DNA of 64,000 nucleotides, taken from Pseudomonadota bacterium (GTDB lineage Bacteria; Pseudomonadota; Alphaproteobacteria; Reyranellales; Reyranellaceae). This document shows positions 3,149 through 57,725 of this stretch, piece by piece. The stretch covers positions 1,032-65,031 of the forward strand of contig JAFEFH010000004.1 in NCBI GenBank assembly GCA_018240695.1, written 5' to 3'. The notes beneath the pieces were generated by a model. It did no database searches and was not told the origin of the DNA. It saw nothing but the letters and a program-made list of their open reading frames with translations. How positions within the stretch are numbered: the first letter of the stretch is position 1; each line of letters begins with the position of its first letter. A program made the position numbers and the translations under genes.

Positions 3149-3169
3149 GAAACACCGATGTCTGCAGAA

Positions 3170-7324: not shown

Positions 7325-7345
7325 GATGGCAAACAGGAGGACACG

Positions 7346-7801: not shown

Positions 7802-7809
7802 TCGTCCGC

Positions 7810-8298: not shown

Positions 8299-8316
8299 TC
8301 GGCCCGTGGGGGCCGT

Positions 8317-8559
8317 CTAGTGGCCGAACAGGCGGACCAGCGCCAGCAGCACGATCGCGCCCACCACCGAGCCGATGAAGCCCGCCGGACGGCCCGCGCG
8401 ATAGAGACCGAGCGCCTGGCCGCCGTACGTCGCGATCACCGAACCGACGATGCCGATCAGCACCGTGATCCAGAAGCCGTAGATGTGCGGGCCGGGCCCG
8501 ATCCAGCGCGCGACCAGGCCCACCAGGAAGCCGATCAGGATGATGCCGATGATCTGCAT
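8317..8559 (-). CDS. GlsB/YeaQ/YmgE (transglycosylase-associated) small membrane protein
   Basis: IIGIILIGFLVGLVARWI, GIVGSVIA, GFIGSVVGAIVLL pattern; RBS GGGGAGAG. Confidence 0.88.
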   Translation of the reverse strand: MQIIGIILIGFLVGLVARWIGPGPHIYGFWITVLIGIVGSVIATYGGQALGLYRAGRPAGFIGSVVGAIVLLALVRLFGH

Positions 8560-8572
8560 GTGCTCTCCCCCT

Positions 8573-34392: not shown

Positions 34393-34447
34393 TCGCCCAA
34401 ACCTTTCGCACGCGGACGAACGCATAGTCCGGCCGTTTCACCCCTTA

Positions 34448-34472
34448 AACGTCAGGGGCGTGCGCGAGTTCC
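34448..34472 (-). promoter_or_regulatory. EcfG (sigmaT/RpoE2)-type promoter of the encapsulin operon
   Basis: Minus strand GGAAC-TCGCGCACGCCCCTGA-CGTT (exact GGAAC-N16-CGTT), 55 nt before the Flp ATG. Confidence 0.75.
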
Positions 34473-39984: not shown

Positions 39985-40947
39985 TCAGCGCCGCGTCAGC
40001 TTCTCGACGACGTTGTCGAGCTGGTCGAAGTCGTTGATCTCCAAGGTCAGCATCGTCTTCTCGCCACCCTCGATGGTGAGCGACGCCTTGAGGCCGAGCG
40101 CCTCCTCGATGCGCTTCTCGAGCGCGCGGGTGTCGCCGGTCTTCTCGCCCGACGGCACCGGCTTCTTGCCCTTGGTCTTGAGCACGGGCCGCGTCTTGGC
40201 TTTCTCGCCGGCGGCCAGCTTTTCGAGATCGCGGACGGAGAGCTTCTCCTTGATCGCCCGCTCGGCGATCTTCGCCGGATCGGGAAAGCCCAGCAGCGCG
40301 CGGCCGTGGCCGGCGGTGATCTTCTCCTCGCGGATCAGCTCCTGCACATCGGCCGGCAGGTCGAGCAGGCGCAGCGTGTTGGCGACATGCGGGCGGCTCT
40401 TGCCCACGGTCTTCGCCACGTCTTCCTGGGTCTGGTTGAAGTCGGCGATCAGGCGGCGCAGGCCCATGGCCTCGTCGATCGGCGACAGGTCGGTGCGTTG
40501 CAGGTTCTCGACCAGGCCGATCTGCAAGGCCTCGAGATTGTCGAGGCTGCGCACGACGACCGGCACGTCATGGAGCTGCGCCTTTTGCGCCGCGCGCCAA
40601 CGGCGCTCGCCGGCGATGATCTCGTAGGCATCGGCCTCGCCGCGAATCGGCCGCACCAGGATCGGCTGGAGCAGGCCGAACTGGCGCACCGATTCGATCA
40701 GCACATCGAGGCCTTCGAAGGTCGTGCGCGGCTGGTACTCGCCCGGCCGCAACTGGCCGATCGGCAAGGTGAGCGGCGCGCGATTGGCGGCAGGACGCGC
40801 GGTGGGTGCTGCCGCAGCCGGCGGTGTCGCGGCCGGCGCGGGAGCAGGCGCGGCGGGCGTTGGGGCAACGGTCGCGGCGACTTCATCGTCGCCCAGCAGG
40901 GCGGAGAGGCCGCGGCCGAGACCGCGGGGCTTGGGAGGCTGGCTCAT
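39985..40947 (-). CDS. parB: Chromosome partitioning protein ParB
   Basis: RGLGRGLSALLG, YQPR, GLLQPILVR, IIAGERRWRAA, LVENLQRTDL, HTH VGKSRPHVANTLRLL; ATG 40947. Confidence 0.97.
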   Translation of the reverse strand: MSQPPKPRGLGRGLSALLGDDEVAATVAPTPAAPAPAPAATPPAAAAPTARPAANRAPLTLPIGQLRPGEYQPRTTFEGLDVLIESVRQFGLLQPILVRPIRGEADAYEIIAGERRWRAAQKAQLHDVPVVVRSLDNLEALQIGLVENLQRTDLSPIDEAMGLRRLIADFNQTQEDVAKTVGKSRPHVANTLRLLDLPADVQELIREEKITAGHGRALLGFPDPAKIAERAIKEKLSVRDLEKLAAGEKAKTRPVLKTKGKKPVPSGEKTGDTRALEKRIEEALGLKASLTIEGGEKTMLTLEINDFDQLDNVVEKLTRR

Positions 40948-41801
40948 GACGGGACCTGTTGCGCGGCAGCGGCGTTGCGCCGGCGGCGGATGAACTCGCT
41001 CGCCAGCAGGATGTAGGCCTGCGATCCGGCGCAGGCATTGTCGTAGATCAGGACGGGCAGGCCGTGCGACGGCGCCTCGGCGATGCGCACGTTGCGCGGG
41101 ATCGTCGTGCCGAACACCAGCTCGCCGAAATGCTGACGCGCATCGGCTTCGACCTGCTGGCTGAGCACGTTGCGCCGATCGACCATGGTCAACACGACGC
41201 CGGCGATATGCAACTTCGGGTTGAGTCTTTTCTTGATCCTCTCCACCGTGTTGACCAACGCGCCGATGCCCTCGAGCGCGAGGAACTCGGCCTGAAGCGG
41301 CACGAGCACCGCGTCGACGGCGACGAAGGCATTCAGCGTCACGAGGCCGAGCGACGGCGGACAGTCGATCAGGATCGTCGTCCATTGCGCGCGTGCCGCG
41401 GACTCGTCGGCGGCGAGCGCATCGAACAGCCGATGCTCGCGGCGCTCCATGTCGATCAGTTCGATCTCCGCGCCGGCCAGCGACACCGACGCCGGCATCA
41501 CCGACAGGCCCGGGATCTGCGAGGTGCGGATGCATTGGGCCATGGGGGAGAGGCCCAGGATGAATTCGTAGGCACCGGGCGCACGCTCGTTGCGCGGCAC
41601 GCCGAGGCCGGTCGAGGCATTGCCCTGGGGATCGAGATCGATCAGCAACACCTTCTCGCCCACCGCGGCGAGGGCGGTGGCGAGATTGATCGCCGTCGTC
41701 GTCTTACCGACGCCGCCCTTTTGATTGGCGATCGCGAATATCTGCGGCCCCGGGGGTGTCGAGGGGCCGGTAGTCGTCGATTCGGAGGAGGACGGCGTCA
41801 C
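40944..41801 (-). CDS. parA: Chromosome partitioning ATPase ParA
   Basis: [57 protein letters not shown]; nearest start GTG 41801 (alternatives 41813, 41855). Confidence 0.95.
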   Translation of the reverse strand: MTPSSSESTTTGPSTPPGPQIFAIANQKGGVGKTTTAINLATALAAVGEKVLLIDLDPQGNASTGLGVPRNERAPGAYEFILGLSPMAQCIRTSQIPGLSVMPASVSLAGAEIELIDMERREHRLFDALAADESAARAQWTTILIDCPPSLGLVTLNAFVAVDAVLVPLQAEFLALEGIGALVNTVERIKKRLNPKLHIAGVVLTMVDRRNVLSQQVEADARQHFGELVFGTTIPRNVRIAEAPSHGLPVLIYDNACAGSQAYILLASEFIRRRRNAAAAQQVPS

Positions 41802-42387
41802 GGTCGGTGGCACTTCTGAAATGTTGAGGGCTAATGTCCCAGCCGCGCTGGGCATCGGTCAATTCGGCCTGCCAGTCTTTGCCCTTGTGAAAAAGGCAAA
41901 TAGCGGGGTCGTTCCGGTGCCGCGCGGCCCAAAACAGCAACTGTCCGAGCGGCGCGAGCGCCCGGGCCGTCACCACATCGGCCTTGGCAGGCGGCACCGC
42001 TTCGATCCGTCCTATCACGATTTTAGGCTGCTTTGCCAAGGACATACGACGGCCGGCCTCGCCCAGGAACGCGGCTTTTCGCGCATCCGATTCGACCAGC
42101 ATGACGTCGAGGTCGGGCCGCAGCGCCGCCACCACGAGACCCGGGAATCCGGCCCCCGTGCCGAGGTCCGCCAAGGTCCGCGCACCGGCCGGGATGTGGG
42201 GCAGGATCTGCGCGGAATCGAGGATATGGCGCCCCCAGATATCATCGACCGTGGCCGGCCCGATCAGGTTGATGGCCTTCTGCCATTTCAGGAGGATTTC
42301 GACATAGGCTTCGAGCCGGCCCTCTGTTTCACGTGAAACATCGGGCAGGAACTCGGCCAGCCTACGCCGCGCGTCGACGCCGGACAT
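41704..42387 (-). CDS. rsmG: 16S rRNA m7G527 methyltransferase RsmG (GidB)
   Basis: [44 protein letters not shown]; ATG 42387. Confidence 0.95.
42325..42340. promoter_or_regulatory. parS centromere site 1 (inside rsmG)
   Basis: Perfect palindrome TGTTTCACGTGAAACA, encoding VSRET. Confidence 0.95.
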
Positions 42388-44269
42388 ATTTGAGCAGGGC
42401 AACGAGGGCGGCCGGGGTGACGCCGGAGATCCGGGCGGCCTGACCGAGGGTGGCGGGCTTGTGGGTGTCGAGCTTCTGGCGGATTTCGTTCGAGAGGCTT
42501 CCCACGGCGCCATAGTCGAGATCGCCCGGCAGCTCCAAGGCCTCGTCCCGGCGGTAGGCCGCAATATCCTCCCGCTGACGGCCGAGATAGCCCTCGTACT
42601 TGGCGTCGATGGAAAGCTGCTCGGAAATCGCCGGGGAAATGGCTCTCAATTCGGGCCAGAGCGCCGTCAAACGGCCCCAATCCATATCTGGATAAGCCAG
42701 CAATTCCAATGAGTTACGGATCACGCCATCCTGGTTGATGGCGACGCCGCGCTTGGCGAGAGCGGACGGGCTCAGGCGCAGGGTTTCCGCCAGCGCCCGG
42801 GCGTCGGCGAGGGCCTGTTGTTTCACGTGAAACATCCCGGCTCGCTCCGTCCCGACGCACCCGATGGCCAGTCCGCGCGGGGTCAGACGCTGGTCGGCAT
42901 TGTCGGCCCGCAGCCACAGCCGGTACTCGGCCCGGGACGTGAACATGCGGTAAGGCTCGGTGATGCCCAGCGAGACCAAGTCGTCGATCAGGACGCCGAC
43001 GTAGCCGTCCGCGCGGTCCACGGCGAACGGCTCCGAACCCGAGGCGGCCAGCGCCGCGTTCAGGCCGGCGATCAGACCTTGGGCCGCCGCTTCTTCATAG
43101 CCGGTCGTGCCGTTGATCTGGCCCGCCATGTAGAGGCCTGGCACGCGCCGCGTCTCGAGCGTCGCGTGCAACTCGCGCGGATCGATATGGTCGTATTCGA
43201 TGGCATAGCCCGGCCGCAGCATGACCGCGCGCTCCAGGCCCGGAATTGTCTGCAACAGCTCGAGCTGAACCTCGCGCGGCAGGGAGGTCGAGATTCCGTT
43301 GGGATAGACCGTCGGATCGTCCAGACCCTCCGGCTCCAGGAAGATCTGGTGCCGCTCGCGGCCGGCGAAGCGCACGACCTTGTCCTCGATCGACGGGCAA
43401 TAGCGCGGGCCGACACTCTCGATCTGGCCCGAATACATCGGCGCGCGGTGAAGGTTGGCGCGGATGATCTCGTGCGTCGCCGGCGTCGTCTCGGTGACAT
43501 GGCAGGCGATCTGCGGCGTCGTGATCTCGCGCGTCAGATAGGAGAAGGGCACCGGCGGCGTATCGCCGTCCTGCCGATCGAGGCCGCTGTAGTCGATCGT
43601 GCGGCTGTCGAGTCGCGCCGGTGTGCCGGTCTTCAAGCGGCCCAGGGCAAAGCCGAGCGCCTGCAACCTCTGCGCGAGTGCCGTTGAGGGCTCTTCGACC
43701 GCATCGGCCGCGAGGTCTTCCGGCACACCGTTGCGCTGGCCGCGCGCGCGGCCGGCGGGGATCTTGACTTCGCCCAGATGAATCAGGCCCCGGAGGAACG
43801 TGCCGGTGGTCAGCACGACGCGGCCGGCAGCGATCTCCGCACCACGCTCGGTCACGACGCCGATACACGTTCCGCGGGCATCCACAACGATGTCGGCGAC
43901 CGCGTCTGCGCGAATCTCGAGATTGTCCTGCTCGGCCAGGATCGCCTGCATGGCCTCGCGATAGAGCTTGCGATCGGCCTGCGCGCGCGGCCCGCGCACG
44001 GCGGGACCCTTGGAGAGATTGAGCGTCCGGAACTGGATGCCGGCCCGGTCGATGGCGCGGCCCATCACGCCGTCGAGCGCATCGATCTCCCGCACGAGGT
44101 GGCCCTTGCCCAGCCCGCCGATCGCCGGATTGCACGACATCTCGCCGATCGTATCGAGCCGGTGGGTCAGCAGCAGCGTGCGCGCGCCCAGCCGCGCGGC
44201 GGCGGCGGCGGCCTCGCACCCGGCATGGCCACCCCCGACCACGATCACATCATAGGCGATGCCCGACAT
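42362..44269 (-). CDS. mnmG: tRNA uridine-5-carboxymethylaminomethyl(34) synthesis enzyme MnmG (GidA)
   Basis: [65 protein letters not shown]; ATG 44269. Confidence 0.98.
42819..42834. promoter_or_regulatory. parS centromere site 2 (inside mnmG)
   Basis: Perfect palindrome TGTTTCACGTGAAACA, encoding MFHVKQ. Confidence 0.95.
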
Positions 44270-44317
44270 GGCCGGTCTTGTACGCCGCTTGATCGACAGC
44301 GGCCAGAGAGGCGGCAA

Positions 44318-44345
44318 TTGCACTCCGCATGCGCGTAGATAGTAT
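44318..44345 (+). promoter_or_regulatory. Putative sigma70 promoter of the lipoprotein gene
   Basis: TTGCAC-N16-TAGTAT, 24 nt before the ATG at 44370. Confidence 0.45.
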
Positions 44346-44369
44346 GCTCTTGGGAACTTGGGGAGTTAT

Positions 44370-45560
44370 ATGCACTATCGTGTTTTCAAGACGTTCTGTG
44401 GCGTCGGCGTACTTCTCACAATGGCTGCAGTCGGCGGTTGTGTGCGTGTTGCCGACAGCAATCTCGGGTACGACGCAATGAAGGCGGGCGACTACGCCAA
44501 GGCGGTCGCCGCCTACGATCGCGATGTCGTCTCTTCGGACAAATACTGCCGGGGCTACTCGGCGCCGGATTGCCCGACCTATGGGCGGGCCAAGGCGAAT
44601 GCGGGACTGGCGCACCTGCGGGCCGGTGATACCGCCAACGGCGAGCGCCTGGTCCGCGAAGGCCTCGACATCCTGAAGAGCAGCTTTCCGTCGTCGGACG
44701 ACATCGGCTATGTCGGCATCGAAAGCCGCGCCGGCGTCTATGCCAGCGTCGTCGAGACTTATGTTGCCCTGGGCCGCTTCGACGAAGCGCGCGCCTTCTA
44801 TCTCGAGGGCGCGTCGCACGGCTACTTCGCGTCGACTTCATCAATGGCCGCGATCGTGAAAAGCGAGCAGGCCGTCGATCCGATCGCTGCACTGATTTTG
44901 GAAATCGCCGTCGCGCTTAGCGTTCCGCAGAAGCAGGACCGCTACAGGGCGCTGATCGAGCAGGCGCGCAGCAACAAGTGGGCAGGGCTCGTCACCCAGC
45001 TTCAGAAGGCGATGGCGGCGACGGCGAAGATCGATCCGTCGGGCGAGTTCGGCTTGAGCTCCGGCGCCTCGAGCACGCAGTCGGCGGAAGCCCGCGCCAA
45101 GGCCGCCGCCTACGCCGCCGCCGGCTTCCCGTCCTACGGCAAGTGGTACCAGATGGAGGCCGCCGTGGCGGATCGCTACAACCGCCAGCAGGCCGAAGAG
45201 GCCGAGCGCATGGCGTCGACACCGTCCTTCAGCGAACAGCTGCTGGCCGCGATGAACGTGGCGGTTCAGAACAGCGCGCGCAGTTCGGGAGCGACGCGCA
45301 CGTCGGCGACGGGTGCGAGACCGACGGGCGGCAACTGCTCGAACACGGTCTATGTCATCCGCTGGACGACGCGGAACATGGGTGAGACCGAGACGCGCGT
45401 GTCGCCCCGGCAGTTCGTCGCCTCGACCGGCAGCGTCGATGCGGCGATCTCGCAGACCCGCTCGCAGATCGCGGCGATCCAGGCCAATCCTTATCCCGGC
45501 AACGAGCGCGCCCTCGCGCAATTCCGCAGCTTCGAGGGTGACCTGCAACGCTGCCGCTGA
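44370..45560 (+). CDS. Hypothetical lipoprotein with TPR-like N-terminal region
   Basis: RBS GGGGAG; hydrophobic leader ending AVGG-C24; helical repeats (YAKAVAAYDR, LGRFDEARAFY). Confidence 0.7.
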   Translation: MHYRVFKTFCGVGVLLTMAAVGGCVRVADSNLGYDAMKAGDYAKAVAAYDRDVVSSDKYCRGYSAPDCPTYGRAKANAGLAHLRAGDTANGERLVREGLDILKSSFPSSDDIGYVGIESRAGVYASVVETYVALGRFDEARAFYLEGASHGYFASTSSMAAIVKSEQAVDPIAALILEIAVALSVPQKQDRYRALIEQARSNKWAGLVTQLQKAMAATAKIDPSGEFGLSSGASSTQSAEARAKAAAYAAAGFPSYGKWYQMEAAVADRYNRQQAEEAERMASTPSFSEQLLAAMNVAVQNSARSSGATRTSATGARPTGGNCSNTVYVIRWTTRNMGETETRVSPRQFVASTGSVDAAISQTRSQIAAIQANPYPGNERALAQFRSFEGDLQRCR

Positions 45561-45579
45561 ACCGGCGCCGGCAGCAGGA

Positions 45580-45605
45580 GCGCGCAGCCTGACTAGGCTG
45601 CGCGC
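45580..45605. terminator. Hairpin at the convergent lipoprotein/ku junction
   Basis: gcgcgcagcct-gact-aggctgcgcgc 11-bp stem overlapping the ku stop. Confidence 0.5.
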
Positions 45606-46465
45606 TTCTTCGCGCCGCCGCCCTTGAGGCTCTTCTTCAGCGCTTCCATCAGGTCGACCACCTTGCCGTCGTCCTCATCTTCCTCGGGCTCGGTGGCGAC
45701 CAGCTTGCCTTTCTTCTTGCGGGCGATCAGCTCACGCAGCGCGTCCTCGTAGCGGTCCTTGAATTCGGTGGGATCGAACGCGGCGGCCTGCTGCTCGATG
45801 ATCTTCTCGGCGATGTCGAGCATGCCCTTCTCGGGCTTGGGCAAGTCGCGGTCGAAAATCTCGGCCGTGCTGCGGATCTCGTCGTGGGTACGCAGGGTCG
45901 TGAGCAGGATGCCGGTCTCGCGCGGCTCGAGCGCGCACACCCGCTCGCGCGTGTGCAGCACCACCCGGCCCAGCGCCACCTTGTTCTGCTTGCTCATTGC
46001 CGCCTGGATCACCGAGAAGGCCTCGATGCCCGTCTTGCCGGCGGGGGCGAGGTAATAGGGCTCGTCCCAGTAGATGCGGTCGATCGAGTCGGCATCGACG
46101 AACTCCTGGATGTCGATGATGCGCGTCGATTCGAGCTTCACCGCGTCGAGCTCTTCCTTCTCGAGCAGGATGTACTTGTTCTTCGAAACCTCGAAGCCGC
46201 GCACCAGGTCGGCGCGGTCGACCGGCTTGCCGGTGCCGGCATCGACCGTCTGCATGCGGATGCGATTGTTGGTCTTGGGATTGATCATGTTGAAGTGGAT
46301 TTCGGAGGTACGTTCTGTCGCCGTATAGAGCGCCACCGGACAGGTCACCAGCGACAGCCGCAGATGGCCCTCCCAGGTCGGCCGCAACGCCTTGTGATGG
46401 CCGGCCGCAGCAGGGGCAGCGCGAGAAGTCCGCTTGCTCTTCGCGGTGCTGCGTTTCTTTGCCAT
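45593..46465 (-). CDS. ku: NHEJ DNA end-binding protein Ku
   Basis: WEGHLRLSLVTCPVALY, GFEVSK, IDIQEFV, YWDEPYYLAP, VVDLMEALKKSL. Confidence 0.96.
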   Translation of the reverse strand: MAKKRSTAKSKRTSRAAPAAAGHHKALRPTWEGHLRLSLVTCPVALYTATERTSEIHFNMINPKTNNRIRMQTVDAGTGKPVDRADLVRGFEVSKNKYILLEKEELDAVKLESTRIIDIQEFVDADSIDRIYWDEPYYLAPAGKTGIEAFSVIQAAMSKQNKVALGRVVLHTRERVCALEPRETGILLTTLRTHDEIRSTAEIFDRDLPKPEKGMLDIAEKIIEQQAAAFDPTEFKDRYEDALRELIARKKKGKLVATEPEEDEDDGKVVDLMEALKKSLKGGGAKKRAA

Positions 46466-46473
46466 GACGTGCC

Positions 46474-49104
46474 TCAGCGTTTGGTTTCGATCAGAGTTTC
46501 GATGGCGGCGCGCAGCGGCCTCGCCGCATCCTCATAGCCGCGCCAGGGCTTGGTCTTCTTCAGCAGCGCCGGCGCGGTCTTCACCGTGTATTTCATGGGA
46601 TCGAGCCCAGCCTTCACGGCCTTCCAGTCGACCGGCATCGACACCGGCGCGCCCGCGCGCGCGCGCGGCGACAGCGGCGCCACCGCGGTCGAGGTTTTGT
46701 CGTTGCGCAGATAGTCGAGAAAGATCCGCCCGGTGCGCTCCTTCTTCGCCATGTTGAGCACGTAGCGGTCGGGAAACTGCGCGGCCAGGCGGCGGCAGAC
46801 TTCCTTGGCGAACATCTTGGCCGCGTCCCAATCGGGACTCTTCTTGTCGGCGGTGAGCGGCACCACGACATGCAGGCCCTTGCCGCCGGTCGTCTTGCAG
46901 AAGGCCTCGAGTCCCAGCGCCTCGAGCCGCTCGCGCACTTCCAACGCGCCCTTGATCACGTCGTTGAACTTCACATCGGGCGCGGGGTCGAGATCGAATA
47001 CCAGTCGGCCCGGCAGCTCGGGCTGGTCGGGCTGGCAGTTCCAGGGATGCAGCTCGGTCGTGCCCATCTGCGCCGCCGCGATCAGTCCCTCGACCCGGTC
47101 GATCTGGAGATAGGGCTTCTTGTCGCCTTTGACCTTCACCGCCTCGAAGAGATGCGAGCCGCCGGCCATGGCATGGCGCTGGAAGAACTTCTGTTTGCCG
47201 TCGATGCCGTCGGGCGTGCGCACGATCGAGCAGGGCCGCCCCTTGATGTGCGGCAGCATCCACTCGCCGACTTCCTCGAAATAGTGCGCGAGGTCGAGCT
47301 TGCTGACCTTGTCCTTGGGCCACAGCAACTTGTCGGGATGGGAGAGGGACACGCCCATCACCATGCCCGGGCCGCCGGCCTTGACCGCGCGCACCGCCTT
47401 TTTGGGAGTGGGTTCCGCGACCTCGGTATCCTCGGGTTCGGCAGGTTTTTCGGCCTCGACGTCCTCGGCCGGCTTGTCGGCGCGCAAGCCCTTGAAGGCT
47501 GCCTGCCGCACGTTGCCCGCGCCCGTCCAGCCGGCGAACTCGATCTCGGCCACCAGCTCGGGCGCGGCCCAGTGCATGTTGCTCTCGCGCGGCGGCGATG
47601 CGGCGGCATCGAACGGCGACTTCTTGCTCTCGACCGCCTTCAGCTTCGGCAGGACGGCGCGCATCACCTTCTCGCTGAAGCCGGTGCCGACACGGCCGAC
47701 ATACACCAGCTTGTCGCCGCCCCCATCAACTTTCCGATGCACGCCCGCCAACAGCGAGCGCAGCTTCCTGCCTTCCTGCGTCCAGCCGCCGATCACCACC
47801 TCATGGCCGGCGCGGCACTTGGCCTTGGTCCAGGTGCCGTGACGGCCGGACTTGTAGGGCGCGCCGAGCTCCTTCGACACGATGCCCTCGAGATGCATCT
47901 TGCAGGCCGACTGGAGGACGGCATCGCCGCCGGTCTCGAAGTGCTCGACGTAGCGGATGGTCTGCTTCCTGGCTTCGGTCGCCGCCAGCAACGCGCGCAG
48001 CCTGTCCTTGCGCTCCGACAGCGGCAGCGGCCGCAGGTCCTCGCCGTCGGCGAACAGCAGGTCGAAGGCGAAGAAGATGAGATTCTTGGAATCGTCCTCC
48101 GACAAGGCGGCCTGGAGCGCCGCGAAGTCGGGCGCCCCATGCTCGTCGAGCGCACAGGCCTCGCCGTCGATGAGGCAGTCGGGCAGGGCAGCCGCCGCCT
48201 CGGCGATGGCGGCGAACTTGCGCGTCCAGTCGAGCCCCTTGCGGGTGCGCAACGCGGCCTCGCCATCCTCGACGCGCAGTTGCAGGCGGTAGCCGTCGAA
48301 CTTCACCTCGTGGGCCCAACCGGCGCCGGAGGGCGCGCGCTCGACCAGCTTGCAGAGTTGCGGCTCGACGAATTCCGGCAGGTCCGCGGCCTTCCTGGCA
48401 TGTGCGGCCTTGCCCTTCTTGCGGATGTTCGTCTTGCCGCTCTCCTTGCTGTTCCAGACGGCGCCGGCGGTGGCCTTGTTCCTGCGGCTCATGAAGGGCG
48501 TCGGCGCCTTGCCGGTGCCGAGCTCGATCTGCTTCAGCGTGCGGCCCGAGGCCACCGACTTCGGGTCCTTCAGGAGCTTGTCGCCATTGCCTTCCTCGGC
48601 AGCGCCGTCGCGATGCTTGATCAGCAGCCAGTTGGTGCGCTTGCTGTCGCCGCTCTTTTTGCCCCACTTCATGCGCACCAGCACCCAACTGCCGCCCAGC
48701 CGCTCGCCCTCCAGGGTGAACTTGAGGTCGCCGCGCTTCAGCCCTTCGTGCGGATCGCCCTCGGGAATCCAGTAGCCGCGGTCCCAGAGCTGGACCGTGC
48801 CGCCGCCATACTGGCCCTTCGGGATGGTGCCTTCGAAGTCTCCATAGTCCAGCGGATGGTCCTCGACCTCGACCGCCAGGCGCTTGTCGGCGGGATCGAG
48901 CGACGGACCCTTGGTCACGGCCCAAGACTTGAACACGCCGTCGAGCTCGAGCCGGAAGTCGTAGTGCAGCCGCGTGGCATCGTGGCGCTGGATGACGAAT
49001 CGGAGTCCCGCCCCCTTCGCCACCACCGCCTTGCCCGAGGGCTCGGCGGTCTTGGCGAAATCGCGCTTGGCGCGATAGGTGTCGAGGCTCCCCTTGGCGC
49101 TCAT
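46474..49104 (-). CDS. ligD: NHEJ DNA ligase D (phosphoesterase-ligase-polymerase)
   Basis: [18 protein letters not shown] (PE), HEVKFDGYR (ligase Lys), [27 protein letters not shown] (Pol). Confidence 0.97.
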
Positions 49105-51194
49105 ACCGGCGGCCGCACCAGCTTCTCGCGGTCCCAGATACGGTGCTTCTTGGCGGCGGCGATGAAGTCCTGCACGCCGCGCTTGCTGTCGAGTTCGACA
49201 ACGCCGAGATCGACGTCGGGCTCGATCGCGGCCTCGTCGAACAACGGCGCGGCCGCGTCGGCATAGGCGATGGCCTTGAGGTGTCCGTAGGCGTCACGGA
49301 TCCAGTTGATCGCGGCGGCCATGTTCAGCAACTCCGCCGCCCCGTCTTCCGACGGCAACACTACGACGGCGTCGAACAGCACCGACGGGCCGCCGTCGAT
49401 CGTCTCGTCCGGCCGGTGCGTGGCCCCACTCGAGTCCTTCAACGGACCGATCTTCGGCGCCACGAGCTTCAGCTTCGCGCCTTCCTTTTTCAGTGCCGTG
49501 GCGAGAGCGGCCAGCAGCTTGCCGTCACAGCCCGGCGTCACCAGCGCGGCGATCGTACGGCCCTCGATGGTGGCCGGCGCCTTGGCGACGATGCTGAGGG
49601 GCGGCGAGGGCGGCAGGTCGTCGCGCGGCTCGACCGCCGGCACGATGTCGTCGGCCTTGCCCTCCATGCCCATCGCCGCGGCGACGCGCTGGCCGAGTTC
49701 GGGCTCGATCAGGTCGAGATGGCCGAGCATCCGGGTCCGGACGGCGAGCGTCGTCACCTTGCTCAGCTCGAACGTGAAGGCCGACACGATATGTGCCTGC
49801 TCCGGCGGCGTCATCGACCGCCAGAACTGGCGGGCCTGCGAGTAATGATCGGCGAAGGTCTCCGACCGCTCGCGCACCTTCGGTCCGGCATTGGGATCGG
49901 GGAAGCTCGCGAAGCCGCGCACCGGGTTCTCGCGCGGGCTCGCGGGATCGAGCGAGTTCGGCTCGTAGTTGGTGCGGCCCGGCACCGCCAGCATGCGCAT
50001 GTGACCGTCGCGCTGGAAGTTGCGCATCGGACAGACCGGCTTGTTGATCGGGATCTCGTGGAAGTTCGGCCCGCCCAACCGCGACAGCTGGGTGTCGAGG
50101 TAGGAATGGAGGCGGCCCTGGAGCAGCGGGTCCGGCGTGAAGTCGATGCCGGGCACGATGTGGCCGGGGTGGAACGCGACCTGCTCGGTCTCGGCGAAGA
50201 AGTTCACCGGATTGCGGTCGAGCACCATGCGGCCGATCGGGGTGAGCGGCACGATCTCTTCCGGAATGATCTTGGTGGGATCGAGGATGTCGAAGTCGAG
50301 CGAATCGGCGATCTTCTCGTCGAACGCCTGAACGCTCAACGTCCATTCCGGGAAGGCGCCGGTGTCGATCGACTCCCACAGGTCGCGGCGGTGATAGTCG
50401 GGGTCGGCGCCGGCGATCTTGACCGCCTCCTCCCAGACCAGCGAGGCCGCGCCGATGGTCGGCCGCCAGTGGAACTTCACGAAGGTCGACTTGCCGGCTA
50501 CGTCGATCAGCCGGAACGTATGGATGCCGAAGCCCTCGATATGGCGCAGCGAGCGCGGGATGGCGCGGTCCGACATCGCCCACATCAGCATGTGCATGCT
50601 CTCGGGCATCAGCGAGACGAAGTCCCAGAAGGTGTCATGCGCCGAGGCGGCCTGCGGGAAGGCGCGATCGGCCTCCATCTTCACCGAGTGGACCAGGTCG
50701 GGGAACTTCATCGCGTCCTGGATGAAGAAGACCGGGATGTTGTTGCCGACCAGGTCGAAGTTGCCTTCCTCGGTGTAGAACTTCACGGCGAAGCCGCGCA
50801 CGTCGCGCGGCGTGTCGACCGAGCCCGCGCCGCCCGCGACGGTCGAGAATCGTACGAAGACCTTGGTGCGCTTGCCGGGCTGCAGGAACGCCGCCTTGCT
50901 GAGCTTGGAGGCACCGCGCGCCGCCTCGAAATATCCGTGCGCTCCCGAACCCCGGGCGTGGACGATGCGCTCGGGAATGCGCTCATGGTCGAAGTGCGTG
51001 ATCTTCTCGCGGAGGATGAAATCCTCGAGCAGGGTCGGACCGCGCGCCCCGCTTTTCAGCGAGTTCTGGTTGTCGGCGACCGGGGTGCCCTGATTGGTCG
51101 TCAGCGTCTGGTTGTCGGCCGCAGTCGTTTGATGCAACTCGCCACCCGCGACCTTCCGGTTCACCGGCTTCTTGCCCGCCTTTGCCTTCGCCAC
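49101..51194 (-). CDS. katE: Large-subunit monofunctional catalase (HPII-type, C-terminal DJ-1/GATase-like domain)
   Basis: [43 protein letters not shown]; likely GTG start 51194. Confidence 0.96.
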
Positions 51195-51247
51195 GATGGA
51201 GACCCCGCGAAATGGAAATCGACCCGATATTGGGAGATGCGGACTCA

Positions 51248-51272
51248 AACGGGCAGGAAAGGAACGGGTTGC
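51248..51272 (-). promoter_or_regulatory. EcfG-type promoter candidate for katE-ligD-ku
   Basis: Minus strand GCAAC-N16-CGTT (one mismatch from GGAAC), 53 nt before the katE GTG. Confidence 0.55.
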
Positions 51273-51318
51273 CACAAAGACGCCGCAACGGCCTTCCTCG
51301 GGGAGTCGTTAGGACTCC

Positions 51319-51975
51319 ATGCCGCAAAAGCATCTCCTCACCCGCCGGCTGCTCGGCACCACCGCCGTCGCCACGGCCATGACCGGCGTCGCCGCCCGCG
51401 CCCAGATCCCCCAACCCAAGGACGTCCAGACCGCCATCGCGCCGGCGCCCTCCTTTCCAGGAAATCTCGACATGAATCTCGACGTGAACGGCCGGCAGCA
51501 CCGGCTGTCGCTCGACCCGCGCACGACGCTGCTCGACGCCCTGCGCGACCATCTCGGCCTCACCGGCACCAAGAAGGGCTGCGACCATGGGCAGTGCGGC
51601 GCCTGTACGGTGCTGATCAACGGCGTGCGGATGAATTCCTGCCTGTCGCTGGCCGCCAGCCGCGAGGGTGACAAGATCGTCACCATCGAGGGCCTGGCCG
51701 ACGGCGAGAAGCTGCACCCGATGCAGACCTCGTTCGTGCATGCCGACGCCTTCCAGTGCGGCTTCTGCACGCCGGGCCAGATCTGCTCGGCGGTCGGCAT
51801 GGCCAACGAGCTGAAGCGCGGCGTGCCATCGGCCGTGACGATCGACGTCGCCGCCGCGCCGACCGCCAGCGTCGACGAAGTGCGCGAGCGCATGAGCGGC
51901 AACATCTGCCGCTGCTCGGCCTATCCTAACATCGTGGCGGCCATCCTCGCCGCTACCGAGGGGGTGACGAAATGA
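51319..51975 (+). CDS. paoA: Aldehyde oxidoreductase 2Fe-2S subunit with Tat-like signal (PaoA/YagT-like)
   Basis: TRRLLG; [30 protein letters not shown]. Confidence 0.9.
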
Positions 51976-52967
51976 AGGCCTTCACCTTCGAACGCGCCAC
52001 CGACGTCGACGCCGCGGTCGCTTCCTCCGCCAAGCCCGGCGCGCGCTTCATCGCCGGCGGCACCAACCTGCTCGATCTCATGAAGGTCGAGGTCGAAAAG
52101 CCCGCGCATCTGATCGACATCTCGCGCCTGCCGTTGCGTGACATCGCCGAGACGCCGGAGGGCGACCTCACGGTGGGAGCGCTGGTCAGCAACACCGACC
52201 TCGCCGCGCATCCCAAGGTGCGCGAACGCTATCCGATGCTGGCGCGCGCGGTCGTCAACGGCGCCTCGGCGCAGCTGCGCAACCAGGCGACAACCGGCGG
52301 CAATCTCCTTCAGCGCACGCGCTGCCCGTACTTCTATGACGTGGCCAAGTCCTGCAACAAGCGCACGCCGGGCGCGGGCTGCTCGGCCTTGCAGGGCATC
52401 AACCGCATGACCGCCGTGCTGGGCGGCAGCGACGCCTGCATCGCCGCGCACCCGTCGGACATGGCGGTCGCCCTGATGGCGCTCGAGGCCACCATCGAGA
52501 CCAAGGGCGGCAGCAAAGGCGGACGCAAGATCGCCATCGCGGATTTCTACCGCCTGCCCGGCGACACACCGCACCGGGAAACCAACCTGGAGCCCGGCGA
52601 GCTGATCGTCTCGGTGGCGCTGCCGCCGCCGCCGGCCGGGCAACAGACCTATCGCAAGGTGCGCGACCGCGCGTCCTACGCTTTCGCGCTGGTGTCGGTC
52701 GCCGCCATCCTCGATCTCGACGCCGACAAGCGCGTGCGTGGTGCGCGGCTGGCGCTGGGCGGTGTCGGCACGATGCCGTGGCGCGCGCTCGATGCCGAGA
52801 AGGGCATGGTCGGCGCCGAGGCGGGCGACAAGGCCTTCGCCGCGGCGGGCGCCGTGGCGATGGCCGGCGCGCGCGGCCGCGGCGGCAACGACTTCAAGAT
52901 CCCGCTGGCCAAGCGCGTCGTGGCGCGCACCTTCGCCGGCCTCGCGACCTCCATTTCGAAGGGCTGA
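51972..52967 (+). CDS. paoB: Aldehyde oxidoreductase FAD subunit (PaoB/YagS-like)
   Basis: [54 protein letters not shown]. Confidence 0.9.
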
Positions 52968-52972
52968 TTCCC

Positions 52973-55069
52973 ATGGCAACTGTCATCGGCATGCCGATCG
53001 ACCGCATCGACGGGCCCGCCAAGGTGACCGGCAAGGCGATCTATGCCGCCGACGTCGGCGCGGACAAGCCGGTGTTCGGCGCGATCGCCACCGCCACCAT
53101 CGCCTACGGGTCCATCAAGTCGATCGATGCCAGCGAAGCGCGCCGCCAGCCCGGCGTGCTGCTGGTGTGGACGCACGAGAACGCCCCGGCCCAGGCGCCG
53201 TGGGTGCCCAAGGCCGAGGATCCGTTCGCCCGTCCCAAGCCCCAGCTCGACAGCAAGAAGATCCAATATTACGGCCAGCCCGTCGCGCTGGTCGTCGCCA
53301 CCACCTTCGAGGCCGCGCGCGAAGCCGCCGCCCTGATCGACGTGACGTACGAGAAGGGCGAAGGGGTGTTCGATCTCGAGAACGCCGGCAAGGACACCAA
53401 GACGCCCAAGCAGGACAATGTCGGCAAGCCTGCCGCCAGCAAGGTGGGCGACGTCGACATGGCGATGCGCACCGGCTTCGTCTCGGTCGACGAGACCTAC
53501 AAGACGCCCTACCAGAACCACAACCAGATGGAGCCGCATGCCAGCACGGCGATCTGGGACGGCGACAAGCTCACCGTGCACTGCGCGGTCCAGCTCGTGG
53601 AATCCGCGCACGCCTGCATCGCCACCACGCTCAAGCTGCCGCCCGAGAAGGTCGAAATCGTGGCCGAGTTCATCGGCGGCGGCTTCGGCGGCAAGCTGCC
53701 GGTCTATGGCGACGCCATCCTGGCCGGTCTGGCCGCGCGCGAGTTGAAGCGGCCGGTCAGGGTCGTGCTGACCCGCCAGCAGATGGCGCACGTCACCACC
53801 CATCGCGGCGCCTCGGTGCAGCGCGTGCGCCTGGCCGCGCAGCGCGACGGCACCCTGACGGCCATCGCGCACGAATCTCTGGCCCAGACCGCGCGCGCCG
53901 ACGACTTCGTCGAGCCGATCGTGGCCTCGACGCGCTCGCTCTACGCCGCGCCCAACCGCTTCACCCAGCAGCGCACCGCCGTGCTCGACCTGCCGATCCC
54001 GGGCTCGATGCGGGCGCCGGGCGAGGCGATCGGCCTGCTGGCGCTCGAGCAGGCGATCGACGAGCTGGCGGTGAAGCTCGACATGGATCCGATCGCGCTG
54101 CGCCTCAAGAACGAGCCCAAGGACGACCCCGAGAAGCACATCCCGTTCTCGACGCGCAACCTGGTGGCGTGCCTGCAACAGGGCGCCGACCGCTTCGGCT
54201 GGAACAAGCGCAACCCCAAGCCCGGCGCCAACCGGCAGGGCCAGTGGCTGGTGGGCATGGGCGTGGCGGCGGCGATCCGCGGCAACTTCCTGCGCAAGGC
54301 AGAAGCCAAAGTCACCATGACCAGCGCGAAGACCGCGACGGTCGAGATGGACATGACCGACATCGGCACCGGCTCCTACACCATCTTCGCGCAGATCGCG
54401 GCCGAAACGCTCGACATTCCGGTCGAGGCGGTGACGGTGAAACTCGGCCACAGCTCCTATCCCGACACGCCGGGCTCGGGGGGCTCGTTCGGCGCGTCGA
54501 GCTGCGGCGCGGCGCTGCTCGATGCCTGCCAGAAGCTGAAGGCGCGCCTCGACAAGGGTGAAGGGCCGCAGGGTTTGACGGCAATGGGCAAGGCCGCGCC
54601 CGGCGACGACTACAAGAAGTACGCGCAGTTCGCCTACGGCGCCCATTTCGCCGAGGTCGGCGTCGACGCCGATACCGGCGAGGTGCGCCTTCGCCGCATG
54701 CTGGGCGTGTTCGATGCCGGCCGCATCCTCAACGCCAAGACCGCGCGCTCGCAGCTGATCGGCGGCATGATCTGGGGTGTGAGTTCGGCGCTCTACGAGG
54801 AGCAGCCGCTCGACCTGCGCTTCGGCTCGTTCATGAGTGTCGACCTCGCCAACTATCACGTGCCGGTGCATGCCGACATCCCGAGCGTCGAAGCCGCGAC
54901 CTTGAAGGAGTTCGACCGCCACGCCAACGCGCTGGGCTCGAAGGGCGTGGGCGAACTCGGCATCTGCGGCGCCGGCGCCGCGGTCGCCAACGCCGTCTAC
55001 AACGCCTGCGGCGCCCGCGTGCGGGAGTACCCGATCACCGTCGACAAGATCCTGCCGGCGTTGAGCTAG
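52973..55069 (+). CDS. paoC: Aldehyde oxidoreductase molybdopterin subunit (PaoC/YagR-like)
   Basis: ATG 52973; DGPAKVTG, HNQMEPH, IGGGFGGK, MRAPG, DIGTG, KGVGELG. Confidence 0.92.
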   Translation: MATVIGMPIDRIDGPAKVTGKAIYAADVGADKPVFGAIATATIAYGSIKSIDASEARRQPGVLLVWTHENAPAQAPWVPKAEDPFARPKPQLDSKKIQYYGQPVALVVATTFEAAREAAALIDVTYEKGEGVFDLENAGKDTKTPKQDNVGKPAASKVGDVDMAMRTGFVSVDETYKTPYQNHNQMEPHASTAIWDGDKLTVHCAVQLVESAHACIATTLKLPPEKVEIVAEFIGGGFGGKLPVYGDAILAGLAARELKRPVRVVLTRQQMAHVTTHRGASVQRVRLAAQRDGTLTAIAHESLAQTARADDFVEPIVASTRSLYAAPNRFTQQRTAVLDLPIPGSMRAPGEAIGLLALEQAIDELAVKLDMDPIALRLKNEPKDDPEKHIPFSTRNLVACLQQGADRFGWNKRNPKPGANRQGQWLVGMGVAAAIRGNFLRKAEAKVTMTSAKTATVEMDMTDIGTGSYTIFAQIAAETLDIPVEAVTVKLGHSSYPDTPGSGGSFGASSCGAALLDACQKLKARLDKGEGPQGLTAMGKAAPGDDYKKYAQFAYGAHFAEVGVDADTGEVRLRRMLGVFDAGRILNAKTARSQLIGGMIWGVSSALYEEQPLDLRFGSFMSVDLANYHVPVHADIPSVEAATLKEFDRHANALGSKGVGELGICGAGAAVANAVYNACGARVREYPITVDKILPALS

Positions 55070-56449
55070 TTATTTTCCGATACAGAAGTCGCGGAAGATC
55101 ACGTCGAGCAGCTCGTCGATGCGCACGGCGCCGGTGATGCGGCCCAGCGCGCGCATGGCGAGGCGCAAATCCTCGGCGGCGAGCGCGATCTCCGGGGCGG
55201 CGAGCGCGCGGCCGATCGCGGCCTGCGCCTCGACCAGGGCCTCGCGGTGACGGGCGCGGGTCAAGGGCGGCGCGGCGCCTTCTTCCATCAAGAGGCCGGT
55301 CGCGCGCTCGATGCGCTGAAGCAGGTCCGGCAAGCCTGCACCGGTCGCGGCCGACAGGGCGACGACCCCGCTGCCGTCGACGGCCGCGAGATCGCTCTTG
55401 TTGACCACGACGATGTCGCGCGCCGCGTCCCAGCGCTCGGTCGCGGCGGTCAGCGCCTGCATCTCCTTCTTCCAGTCTCCGGCCGCGTCCAGCACCAGCA
55501 GGCGCAGGTCGGCCTCGGCGGCGCGCTGCCGGGCCCGGCGCACGCCTTCCTGCTCGATCGCGTCCGCCGACTCGCGCAGGCCCGCGGTATCGGCCAGCAC
55601 AACCGGCCAGCCGCCGAGATCGAGATGGACCTCGATCACGTCGCGCGTCGTGCCGGCGGTCTCCGACACGATGGCGGCGTCGCGGCGCGCCAGCAGGTTG
55701 AGCAGCGACGACTTGCCGGCGTTGGGCGGGCCGACGATGGCGATGTGCACGCCGTCGCGCAGCCGCTCGCCGCGCTTGTCGTCGAGATGCGTCGCGATCT
55801 CGGCGCGCAGCTTGGCAATCGCGGTCTGCACTTCAGCGCCGATGCCGTCAGGCAGGTCCTCGTCGGGAAAATCGATCGCCGCCTCGAGATGCGCCAGCGC
55901 GCGCAAACCAACCGTGCGCCAATCCTCGTAGAGCCGGTGCAGCGCGCCACCCATCTGGCGCATCGCCAGCCGGCGCTGCTGGTCGGTCTCGGCGGCCACG
56001 AGATCGGCGATGCCTTCGGCCTCGGTGAGGCCGAGCTTGCCGTGCTCGAAGGCGCGGCGCGTGAACTCGCCGGGCTCAGCCAGACGGCAGAAGCCGAGCT
56101 TGGCGATCGCGGCCAAGGCGGCGGTGGCGACGGCGCGGCCGCCGTGCAGGTGCAGCTCGACCATCATCTCGCCGGTCTCGGTGTGCGGCGCCTCGAAATA
56201 GACGGCGATGCCGCGGTCGATCGCCTCGCCGGTCAGCGGATCGTAGATCGTGCGCAGCACCATGCGCCGCGTCTCGGGCAGCGAGGGATCGCGCGCCGAA
56301 TGGCCGCGCTCGAACGCTTTGGCTTCGGTGAGAAAGACGAACGCGTCGGGCGCGCGCGGGCCGCTGATGCGGATGACCGAGAGCGCGCCGGGCGCCGCCC
56401 TCGACGGGGCCGGCGTGCCGAGCGCATAGATCGTGGCAGCGTCCATCAC
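55070..56449 (-). CDS. mnmE: tRNA modification GTPase MnmE (TrmE)
   Basis: AEPGEFTRRAF, GPPNAGKSS, GTTRDVIE, DTAGLR, NKSD, C-terminal FCIGK. Confidence 0.97.
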   Translation of the reverse strand: MMDAATIYALGTPAPSRAAPGALSVIRISGPRAPDAFVFLTEAKAFERGHSARDPSLPETRRMVLRTIYDPLTGEAIDRGIAVYFEAPHTETGEMMVELHLHGGRAVATAALAAIAKLGFCRLAEPGEFTRRAFEHGKLGLTEAEGIADLVAAETDQQRRLAMRQMGGALHRLYEDWRTVGLRALAHLEAAIDFPDEDLPDGIGAEVQTAIAKLRAEIATHLDDKRGERLRDGVHIAIVGPPNAGKSSLLNLLARRDAAIVSETAGTTRDVIEVHLDLGGWPVVLADTAGLRESADAIEQEGVRRARQRAAEADLRLLVLDAAGDWKKEMQALTAATERWDAARDIVVVNKSDLAAVDGSGVVALSAATGAGLPDLLQRIERATGLLMEEGAAPPLTRARHREALVEAQAAIGRALAAPEIALAAEDLRLAMRALGRITGAVRIDELLDVIFRDFCIGK

Positions 56450-56781
56450 CGCCGGGCAGGCGGCGCGGCGGGACGCGCGGGCGCGGCAGGGGCCGCCGCC
56501 ACCGGACGCGCATAGACCTTGTCCGACAGCTTCTCGTACAGCGCCTCGGGAATGATGTGCCGCTCGACCAGCTCGGTCTTCGCGCGGAACGGGCGCGAGC
56601 GGATGATCGCATCGGCGCGCACGTCGCCGATCCCGTCGAGCGTCAGGAGCTGGTCGCGGCTCGCACTGTTGAGGTCGATCTGGTTGGCCGCCGGCGGGGC
56701 GGACGCGGGCGCGCGGGTCTGCGCGGAAGCGACTCCCGCGAACAGCAGGACAACGGCGAAGACGGAGGCGGCGAAACGCAT
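56446..56781 (-). CDS. Exported helix-hairpin-helix (ComEA-like) protein
   Basis: Signal peptide MRFAASVFAVVLLFAGVASA; IDLNSASRDQLLTLDGIG...ADAII; stop overlaps the mnmE start. Confidence 0.85.
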   Translation of the reverse strand: MRFAASVFAVVLLFAGVASAQTRAPASAPPAANQIDLNSASRDQLLTLDGIGDVRADAIIRSRPFRAKTELVERHIIPEALYEKLSDKVYARPVAAAPAAPARPAAPPARR

Positions 56782-56788
56782 CGGCGGA

Positions 56789-57682
56789 TTATCGCACGAT
56801 CTCTTCCCAGGCGGGACAGGGACGCTCGGCGAACGGCATCTTCCAGCGGGCATAATTGCCGCGGTCGATCAGCTCGGCCGGCACCATGATCTCGCGCGGC
56901 ACCTGCTGGCCCGCGAGATGGCGCAGCACCGCGCGCGTGGCGATGGCCGCGATGTTGAACGCGCTGAAGTCGGCGCTGGCCAGCATCGTGCCGCGCTCAA
57001 TGTGTTCGATCGCCTGCGGCAGGCCGTTGATGCCGACGACCTGCGCCGTGCGGCCGGCCGCCCGGAGCGCGTCGAGCGCGCCGAAGGCCATCAGGTCGTT
57101 GGCCGTCCACACGCCGTCGATGCGCGGATGGCGCGCGAGCAGGGCGGCCATCGCCTCGGCGGCCGGCGGCTGTTGCAGGTAGCCGACCGCCATGTCGATC
57201 AACTGGACGCCCGGATAGCGCGCCACGGTCTCGCGCAGGCCCTGGACCCGGGCGCGGCTGGTGGGTGCGGCTTGCGGGCCTTCGAGTCCGACGATGCGGC
57301 CCTTTCCGCCCAACCTTTCGCAGAGGGCGGTCGCGGTGCGCCGGCCGATAGCTATATCGTCGGAGCCGACGAAGGTCAGGGCGGGCCCCTGCATGCGGTT
57401 GATGAACACCGCCACCGGGATGCCGGCGGTGGCGATGCGGACGAGGTCGTCCTGCATCTTCACGTCGTCTGCGGGGTTCAGGACGATGCCGGCGGGGCGG
57501 GCGGCCAGCGCCTCGCTCACCTGCGCCTTCTGCTCGTCGACGTCGTCGGGCGTCGCCGGCGCGTAATGGATGGTGCGGGCGCCGGCCTCGGCCGCGACCC
57601 GGTCGGCGGCCAGGCGCGCGGCGGCGTAGGCCGGATTGACCCGGTTCTTGGTGAAAACCGCGAGAATCGGGGGCTTTTCCAT
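56789..57682 (-). CDS. Sugar-binding periplasmic-binding-protein-like (RbsB/LacI fold) protein without signal peptide
   Basis: ATG 57682; FVGSDD, SRARVQG, GVWTANDLMAFGA, VVGING. Confidence 0.8.
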   Translation of the reverse strand: MEKPPILAVFTKNRVNPAYAAARLAADRVAAEAGARTIHYAPATPDDVDEQKAQVSEALAARPAGIVLNPADDVKMQDDLVRIATAGIPVAVFINRMQGPALTFVGSDDIAIGRRTATALCERLGGKGRIVGLEGPQAAPTSRARVQGLRETVARYPGVQLIDMAVGYLQQPPAAEAMAALLARHPRIDGVWTANDLMAFGALDALRAAGRTAQVVGINGLPQAIEHIERGTMLASADFSAFNIAAIATRAVLRHLAGQQVPREIMVPAELIDRGNYARWKMPFAERPCPAWEEIVR

Positions 57683-57725
57683 GCGCCCTATTTTAAGCCT
57701 TCCGCGCCCTATATCATCAGGCGCC

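Follow-up and report, generated by a model that had tools for sequence, protein, structure and literature searches.

A katE-ligD-ku gene cluster behind an EcfG-type promoter box: a probable general-stress operon in Reyranellaceae-like Alphaproteobacteria

In a 64-kb window of alphaproteobacterial DNA (contig JAFEFH010000004.1; the window is the whole stretch of 64,000 nucleotides (nt) analysed here), the gene for an HPII-like catalase, katE, is followed directly by ligD and ku, which encode the two proteins of bacterial non-homologous end joining (NHEJ). It is probable, at roughly 0.75, that katE-ligD-ku constitutes a three-gene general-stress operon driven from a promoter box of the type recognised by the sigma factor EcfG. 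The genes and the domains of their products, the spacing between them, the conservation of the box and of the gene order, and the distribution of the arrangement were all observed directly; a single transcript covering katE, ligD and ku is predicted from the sequence. The features of the unit, in the order of transcription, are as follows.

51248-51272, minus strand: EcfG-type promoter box, with -35 element GCAAC (51272-51268), a 16-nt spacer and -10 element CGTT (51251-51248)
51195-51241, minus strand: predicted 5' leader of about 47 nt, counted from the predicted transcription start
49101-51194, minus strand: katE, HPII-like large-subunit monofunctional catalase, 697 amino acids, GTG start
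49101-49104, minus strand: ATGA stop/start overlap of katE and ligD (TGA 49103-49101, ATG 49104-49102), candidate translational coupling site
46474-49104, minus strand: ligD, NHEJ enzyme of 876 amino acids, in the order 3'-phosphoesterase, ATP-dependent ligase, primase-polymerase
46472-46475, minus strand: ku Shine-Dalgarno sequence GAGG, sharing bases with the ligD stop codon and lying 6 nt ahead of the ATG
45593-46465, minus strand: ku, bacterial Ku DNA-end-binding protein, 290 amino acids, with basic N- and C-terminal tails
45579-45606, minus strand: GC-rich hairpin, a perfect 12 bp, straddling the ku stop codon and lacking a U tract

The three genes occupy one strand with spacings of -4 and +8 nt, and no terminator-like site was found on the minus strand inside katE-ligD-ku. 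An earlier note on this DNA had described an overlap of the katE stop with the ligD start codon at 49101-49104, and this is borne out, the TGA and the ATG together forming ATGA; the two genes may be translationally coupled at this point. Equally accurate was its statement that ku follows ligD after 8 nt with a GAGG ribosome-binding site, since the ku ATG (46465) lies 8 nt past the ligD TGA (46476-46474) and the GAGG (46475-46472) overlaps that stop codon. In most relatives the spacing of ligD and ku is 2-9 nt or the genes overlap, start calls in these loci being approximate.

KatE carries the catalase core, the catalase-related domain and the C-terminal flavodoxin-like domain of the long catalases (Pfam Catalase PF00199, 2e-175; Catalase-rel PF06628, 1.4e-24; Catalase_C PF18011, 7.6e-12), and its residues 25-690 align with residues 74-745 of E. 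coli HPII structures (E 2e-234). HPII possesses distal His and Asn residues and a proximal Tyr which ligates the heme. The contexts of all three are intact in KatE, the alignment to the HPII structure 3ttt_A retaining VHARGS.AHGYF, GNN.P.FFIQD and the Tyr motif context. Against the NCBIfam equivalog for catalase HPII (NF008422) KatE scores 993.5 bits where 1102 is the cutoff; the shortfall is due to the missing N-terminal arm, the match beginning at profile position 68. The name katE is therefore used for the type of catalase and does not imply strict orthology. The gene has a GC content at third codon positions (GC3) of 0.91. A start at GTG 51275, which would give the longest open reading frame (ORF), was rejected: it would extend across the promoter box and relatives do not share it, whilst the start at GTG 51194 is conserved with them. 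The related locus L005 keeps both the leader and the context of the GTG start (tttcgcgggg..catcGTGgcgaaggcaaag), and L087 keeps them more loosely. A search of Rfam returned no family for the 5' leader, and no structured RNA or tRNA was found in the katE-ligD-ku region.

LigD contains the Pfam domains LigD_N (PF13298, residues 39-144), DNA_ligase_A_M/C (PF01068 and PF04679, residues 260-544) and LigD_Prim-Pol (PF21686, residues 602-853). It scores well above the cutoffs of the NCBIfam models PRK05972 (1276, cutoff 895) and TIGR02776 (720, cutoff 373), and it matches the solved phosphoesterase (PE) and polymerase (Pol) domains of P. aeruginosa LigD and the ligase domain of the M. tuberculosis enzyme. 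Ku is recognised by Pfam PF02735 (6e-48) and by NCBIfam TIGR02772, Ku_bact (295.9, cutoff 150). Besides the usual basic C-terminal tail, Ku has a Lys/Arg/Ala-rich basic extension before the Ku core (residues 1-27; 46378-46465, minus strand), which aligns in the closest relatives, L004 and L005, and not in Reyranella-type proteins.

An EcfG promoter was taken to consist of a -35 element GGAAC or GCAAC, a spacer of 16-17 nt and a -10 element CGTT, lying on the coding strand just upstream of a gene, with transcription starting some 6-8 nt past the -10 element. GGAAC-N16-CGTT is the EcfG consensus and GCAAC the second commonest -35 sequence of proven EcfG promoters; in Sphingopyxis, a GCAAC/CGTT promoter has been transcribed by EcfG in vitro (PMC7083833). 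The box in front of katE lies 53 nt before GTG 51194, transcription is predicted to start near 51241, and the sigma factor which reads the box would be EcfG. The earlier note had reported one GCAAC-N16-CGTT motif upstream of the genes. This is present at 51272-51248 but it is not the sole box in the spacer, as a GCAAC-N17-CGTT sequence occupies 51285-51310 on the opposite strand.

Taken alone the katE box is weak evidence, since 0.41 matches to GCAAC-N16-CGTT are expected by chance per window. Related loci were therefore compared using a strict pattern, G(G/C)AAC-N15-18-(C/G)GTT, applied to the 90 nt in front of the leading gene of each cluster. The pattern was found in 16 of 16 loci, in the form G(G/C)AAC-N16/17-CGTT, 8-54 nt upstream of the first gene (katE in seven loci, ligD in nine), where 0.005 matches are expected per 90-nt upstream window. 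In the 238 kb of locus sequence the pattern occurs 29 times on the plus strand, and these 16 boxes account for over half of the occurrences. The boxes have been retained whilst the spacers and flanks diverged, albeit in loci which are related and hence non-independent, and with 16 of 16 against 0.005 expected amid drifting flanks, their conservation is not a matter of chance. GGAAC and GCAAC alternate as the -35 element among orthologous loci, and the bases just past the -10 element (CGTTGGACTC) are common to loci with and without katE, so that the same promoter is used either way. Within the operon, a strict EcfG-type box is absent from the window and from five other katE-containing loci.

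The premise of the earlier note that katE and ku/ligD are each targets of the general stress response agrees with published EcfG regulons. In S. meliloti, ku3-ku4 and ligD4 are dependent on RpoE2/EcfG, and of the alphaproteobacteria which possess ku, about 90% have a putative EcfG box in front of a ku gene (PMC6379672). Two catalases and ku-ligD are separate direct targets of the EcfG-governed general stress response in Sphingopyxis granuli (PMC7083833), and in Sphingomonas melonis the genes regulated by EcfG include catalases and a Ku gene (PMC6599016).

Related loci were gathered in three ways: LigD homologues were looked up exactly, the species genomes of GTDB were scanned with a LigD profile, and metagenomes were scanned with KatE. 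Each scan took the best 80 of at least about 600 candidates, so that the frequencies given here describe samples and not censuses, and the KatE metagenome scan took in few members of the close clade. In the Reyranellaceae-type clade ku typically follows ligD on the same strand, and the pair mostly sits between mnmE and mnmG. A catalase gene lies directly upstream of ligD in the window, the P0013 contigs (spacing -4 nt), L087 (+2), L008, L167 and L169/L170 (+3 each), L005 (+16) and L168 (+62); it is missing from this position in L001-L004, L007 and L009-L012. The spacing is tight (-4 to +16 nt) and free of an internal box in six of the seven katE-containing loci. The synteny survey proposed in the earlier note thus recovers the same order in at least seven related loci, mostly tightly packed, and finds it rare among the loci sampled outside the family. 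The arrangement is common in public Reyranellaceae assemblies, with katE present in about half of the sampled lineages, and it is seen, for instance, in GCA_030684485.1 and GCA_041691635.1. Roughly 12 of the top 120 LigD clusters have a candidate partner on the same contig among the top 120 KatE clusters, and four such pairs were confirmed to be adjacent. Outside the family, one of 80 LigD loci (the best 80 among GTDB species) has the catalase, namely L008, and on the KatE side one of 79 more distant loci, again among the best matches, joins a catalase to NHEJ genes, namely L096.

Three states of the cluster coexist within the family: ligD-ku with its own box; katE and ligD-ku each preceded by a box; and a packed katE-ligD-ku behind one box. 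Across the family the core of the cluster is ligD-ku with an EcfG box of its own, to which katE is a promoter-proximal extra gene. The second state is represented by L168, where a further GCAAC-N16-CGTT (5949-5973) lies 27 nt before ligD, within a 62-nt spacer between katE (3854-5938) and ligD (6001-8625); this looks like an intermediate, two-promoter state. The pairwise identities of KatE and LigD co-vary (r = 0.84) and the pair has therefore been inherited together. An old union of katE with ligD-ku followed by repeated loss is the simpler reading of the distribution, gains being possible also. In L096, by contrast, the arrangement is an independent event, because its KatE is just 62% identical. 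Here a gene for a ligase-polymerase (Lig-Pol) protein (3082-4962), katE (4998-7058) and a stand-alone PE-domain gene (7113-7775) follow one another on the plus strand, 35 and about 55 nt apart. Two Rhizobium-type loci with katE within 4-6 kb of ligD (L055 and L060) were given a brief look, which revealed no adjacency and no clear shared box.

EcfG is freed under stress in Alphaproteobacteria by the PhyR-NepR partner switch. In the host of this locus the same switch would release EcfG upon stress or growth arrest, PhyR, NepR and EcfG being assumed for this genome from its class; in PMC3892343, EcfG is described as exclusive to the Alphaproteobacteria and as a core part of the general stress response there. 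RNA polymerase carrying EcfG would bind GCAAC/CGTT at 51272-51248 and initiate near 51241, giving one mRNA of about 5.7 kb for the HPII-like catalase, LigD and Ku, which would end at or near the GC-rich hairpin before the convergent gene. Ribosomes completing katE at TGA 49101 could restart at the overlapping ligD ATG 49104 by termination-reinitiation, whilst ku would be translated from its own GAGG site inside the ligD stop codon. A non-growing cell with a single chromosome copy might in this way produce, from one switch, both a very stable scavenger of H2O2 and the Ku/LigD end-joining machinery. The link between katE and NHEJ is a regulatory one, of timing, promoter and gene-order consolidation, and not one of a shared biochemical pathway.

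A number of observations weigh against such an EcfG-driven operon. The -35 element in the window is GCAAC and not the canonical GGAAC, and neither ecfG, nepR nor phyR was found in the 64-kb window, in which about 45 predicted proteins, nearly all of the gene calls, were scanned. The katE GTG start has just a weak GGGG upstream, and the ligD ATG is without a clear Shine-Dalgarno sequence. In L168 a ligD-proximal box coexists with katE. On a rough and unsupported neighbour-joining tree of LigD, katE-positive and katE-negative loci are interleaved. A search for RNA runs of the host itself found none. Sequencing runs guessed to be of RNA contain two exact pieces, one of 180 nt from katE (X12) and one of 186 nt from ligD (X13). 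The katE-ligD junction is crossed by a single exact contig (X5, 48829-49229), whose run is of unknown type. Of the metatranscriptome contigs matching at 90% likeness, most are fragments of conserved catalases from other organisms, and at 99% just four short pieces are left. The RNA pieces speak neither for nor against co-transcription.

The gene order could also reflect a functional dependency, in which end joining in quiescent cells needs H2O2 to be removed simultaneously and at a constant ratio, for instance so that DNA ends or the metal-dependent domains of LigD are protected, and selection has welded katE to ligD-ku. The promoter-proximal position of katE, its overlap with ligD and the joint inheritance of the pair (r = 0.84) are in keeping with this proposal, as are the placing of katE between Lig-Pol and PE-domain genes in the unrelated L096, whose Lig-Pol and catalase proteins occur together on at least four contigs, and the co-expressed island of P. 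aeruginosa, in which katE stands between ligD and ku. It is nevertheless unlikely, given that about half of the sampled Reyranellaceae loci have no katE there, that loci with and without it are intermingled on the LigD tree and that adjacency is rare elsewhere (1 of 80 LigD and 1 of 79 KatE loci, among the best matches). The patchy, interleaved occurrence of katE indicates that selection for the fusion has not been strong. Doubtful to a similar degree is the extended proposal that a catalase-first, translationally coupled cistron is a selected dependency which arose independently in Reyranellaceae, in L096 and, more loosely, in P. aeruginosa. Were it true, the family would offer a natural series, from ligD-ku alone through two promoters to the fused operon, and the clearance of peroxide would be required for Ku/LigD repair in quiescence.

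Less likely again is that the neighbouring genes are transcribed separately, with promoters hidden in katE or ligD, of the sigma-70 or another type, driving ligD and/or ku. The strict box 27 nt before ligD in L168 means that independent ligD-ku transcription exists in the family, and the adjacent ligD2 and ku2 genes of S. meliloti have independent promoters (PMC6379672). In the window, a weak sigma-70-like match (9/12) lies inside katE at 50293-50266 and one match to a relaxed pattern lies inside ligD, 502 nt before ku. The former is what chance would provide (1 found, 0.8 expected), and the positions of the relaxed matches differ between loci. Internal promoters had been named in the earlier note as a refuting circumstance; six of the seven katE-containing loci are free of a strict EcfG-type box within the operon. 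There is moreover no intergenic room in the window (-4 and +8 nt), and the tight spacing is kept across lineages. The coupled operon that the note put forward is supported in part, by the common strand, the spacing, the lack of a terminator and of a strict internal box, and the preserved order, but must be qualified by the second, internal box of L168.

That the box is read by a different sigma factor of the extracytoplasmic function (ECF) type, or is not a promoter, so that the operon falls outside the general stress response, is highly improbable. In its favour, an AAC-containing -35 element is common to many ECF sigma families (PMC7083833), no ecfG, nepR or phyR was found in the window, and the -35 element there departs from GGAAC. 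Against it, both elements and the 16/17-nt spacing fit the EcfG consensus, GGAAC and GCAAC alternate among orthologous loci, EcfG transcribes GCAAC/CGTT promoters in vitro (PMC7083833), three other alphaproteobacteria have ku, ligD and catalases as proven targets of EcfG, and the remaining boxes of the window precede genes of an oxidative-stress type.

At the downstream end of the presumed EcfG-driven operon, the hairpin over the ku stop codon is likely to be the 3' end or a stabiliser of the transcript. Its 111-nt context is not significant as a whole (z = -1.65) and the hairpin is not kept in relatives. A canonical intrinsic terminator was sought after ku, and just this hairpin, without a U tract and not conserved, was found. 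Directly after ku comes a convergent ORF on the plus strand (44358-45560) with a coding-type GC3 of 0.82. Two minus-strand ORFs, 44841-45548 and 44250-44819, were considered as further genes of the operon; with a GC3 of 0.61-0.64, compared with 0.82 for the plus-strand ORF which they overlap, they were discarded. The convergent gene encodes a product of 400 amino acids with a lipoprotein-like N-terminus (...LLTMAAVGGC...) and sub-threshold TPR matches only. In relatives the position after ku is taken by an HpcH/HpaI aldolase, a histidine phosphatase or an AHSA1/HTH pair, and is therefore variable. In L009 (at 10179) and L010 (at 10177), a plus-strand GGAAC-N17-CGTT lies some 600-700 nt past ku, before the next gene, which hints at another general-stress gene adjoining the NHEJ pair in these two loci; L011 has just a weaker GCAAC...GCGTT match at 10164.

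Two further boxes of the same type were found in the window.

51285-51310, plus strand: second EcfG-type box, GCAAC-N17-CGTT, a neighbouring feature back to back with the katE box and not part of the operon
34448-34472, minus strand: perfect GGAAC-N16-CGTT, 22 nt upstream of an encapsulated-ferritin (EncFtn-like) gene

The -35 elements of the two back-to-back boxes are separated by 12 bp. The -10 element of the second box ends 8 nt before the ATG (51319) of a divergent gene for a 2Fe-2S subunit with a twin-arginine translocation (Tat) signal, and this distance is found also in L001, L004 and L087, which suggests a leaderless or near-leaderless general-stress transcript. The divergent plus-strand genes encode the Tat-signal 2Fe-2S subunit (51319-51975), a flavin adenine dinucleotide (FAD) subunit (51972-52967) and a molybdopterin subunit (about 52970-55069); by Pfam their products belong to the xanthine-dehydrogenase/aldehyde-oxidoreductase family and resemble a periplasmic aldehyde oxidoreductase. 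An inverted repeat, GGAGTC-GTTAG-GACTCC (6 bp; 51302-51318, plus strand), abuts the 2Fe-2S ATG and includes the -10 element; it is weakly kept in L087. The third box precedes an encapsulated-ferritin gene (33991-34425, minus strand) which overlaps the gene for an encapsulin shell protein (Linocin_M18; 33170-33994, minus strand), so that an iron-storage nanocompartment operon apparently stands under the same type of general-stress promoter. The recurrence of the box before the ferritin/encapsulin and the oxidoreductase operons fits a working regulon in the host.

The host is an uncultured, Reyranellaceae-like alphaproteobacterium of soil or fresh water. The window has a GC content of 68% (over 64 kb), and its LigD is 71-86% identical to proteins which their sources name as Reyranella, Enhydrobacter or Reyranellaceae. 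A 6.2-kb contig of a deposited metagenome-assembled genome holds a LigD copy 99% identical to that of the window, beside a partial catalase which is also 99% identical. The locus is chromosomal, between mnmE and mnmG. One flank of the cluster carries mnmG and parA, and the other the divergent 2Fe-2S/FAD/molybdopterin operon followed by mnmE and glnD. A plasmid origin was rejected after a megablast search of PLSDB gave partial ligD matches only (at most 41% coverage, about 72% identity), with no shared gene order. The ligD-ku cluster belongs to an mnmE/mnmG (gidA)/gidB/parA/parB neighbourhood both in the window (40944-60518) and in L001-L005, L168 and L169. This set of genes usually adjoins the chromosomal replication origin.

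Stress-induced end joining is a recent topic in bacterial DNA repair, with a bearing on mutagenesis and on the uptake of foreign DNA in non-growing cells. The gene order described here shows defence against oxidative stress and the repair of breaks fused behind one general-stress promoter in one family, and gives a testable hint that peroxide removal and end joining are needed together. As relatives keep the states before, during and after the fusion, they also provide a cheap natural experiment on the condensation of regulon members into operons. No description of a katE-ligD-ku operon, or of a catalase inside an NHEJ operon, was found in the open-access full-text literature searched. The novelty suggested in the earlier note is overstated, EcfG control of ku/ligD and of catalases being already published; at most it would extend to the fused operon.

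A number of parallels can be drawn with known systems. The NHEJ units of S. meliloti and Sphingopyxis likewise combine Ku with a three-domain LigD under GGAAC/GCAAC-N16-17-CGTT and are induced by stress or in stationary phase, but they consist of NHEJ genes only, the catalases forming separate units, whereas in the window the catalase comes first and overlaps ligD. E. coli KatE is an RpoS-dependent stationary-phase catalase. Together with the EcfG-dependent catalases of Sphingopyxis and Sphingomonas, it shares with the KatE described here the large subunit, the C-terminal flavodoxin-like domain and a promoter for a stress sigma factor; unlike E. coli HPII, the KatE of the window is without the N-terminal arm of about 50-70 residues and its gene is not monocistronic. 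The LigD of B. subtilis differs from that of the window in its domain order. Its gene forms the pair ku-ligD (ykoV-ykoU) which, as cited in PMC6379672, is also assigned to an alternative sigma factor, the forespore SigG, in a dormant, non-replicating state; the sigma factor is a different one, however, and no catalase is in the unit. In L096 a large-subunit catalase again stands among NHEJ enzyme genes on one strand, but LigD is split, no Ku was found within 5 kb, there is no EcfG-type box, and the locus has 57% GC. In P. aeruginosa, ligD (PA2138), katE (PA2147) and ku (PA2150) belong to a 57-gene island, PA2134-PA2190, with one stationary-phase/biofilm expression profile, many genes of which are regulated by RpoS or quorum sensing (PMC1525188, PMC12413089). 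Thus an HPII catalase lies between ligD and ku within 12 genes there too, albeit in a gammaproteobacterium, under RpoS and not EcfG, with intervening genes, no overlap and not as one operon. Set beside these systems, katE-ligD-ku brings no new enzyme, regulator or mechanism and is unsurprising to a specialist; it amounts to a case in which two established members of the general-stress regulon have, in a single family, been condensed into an operon.

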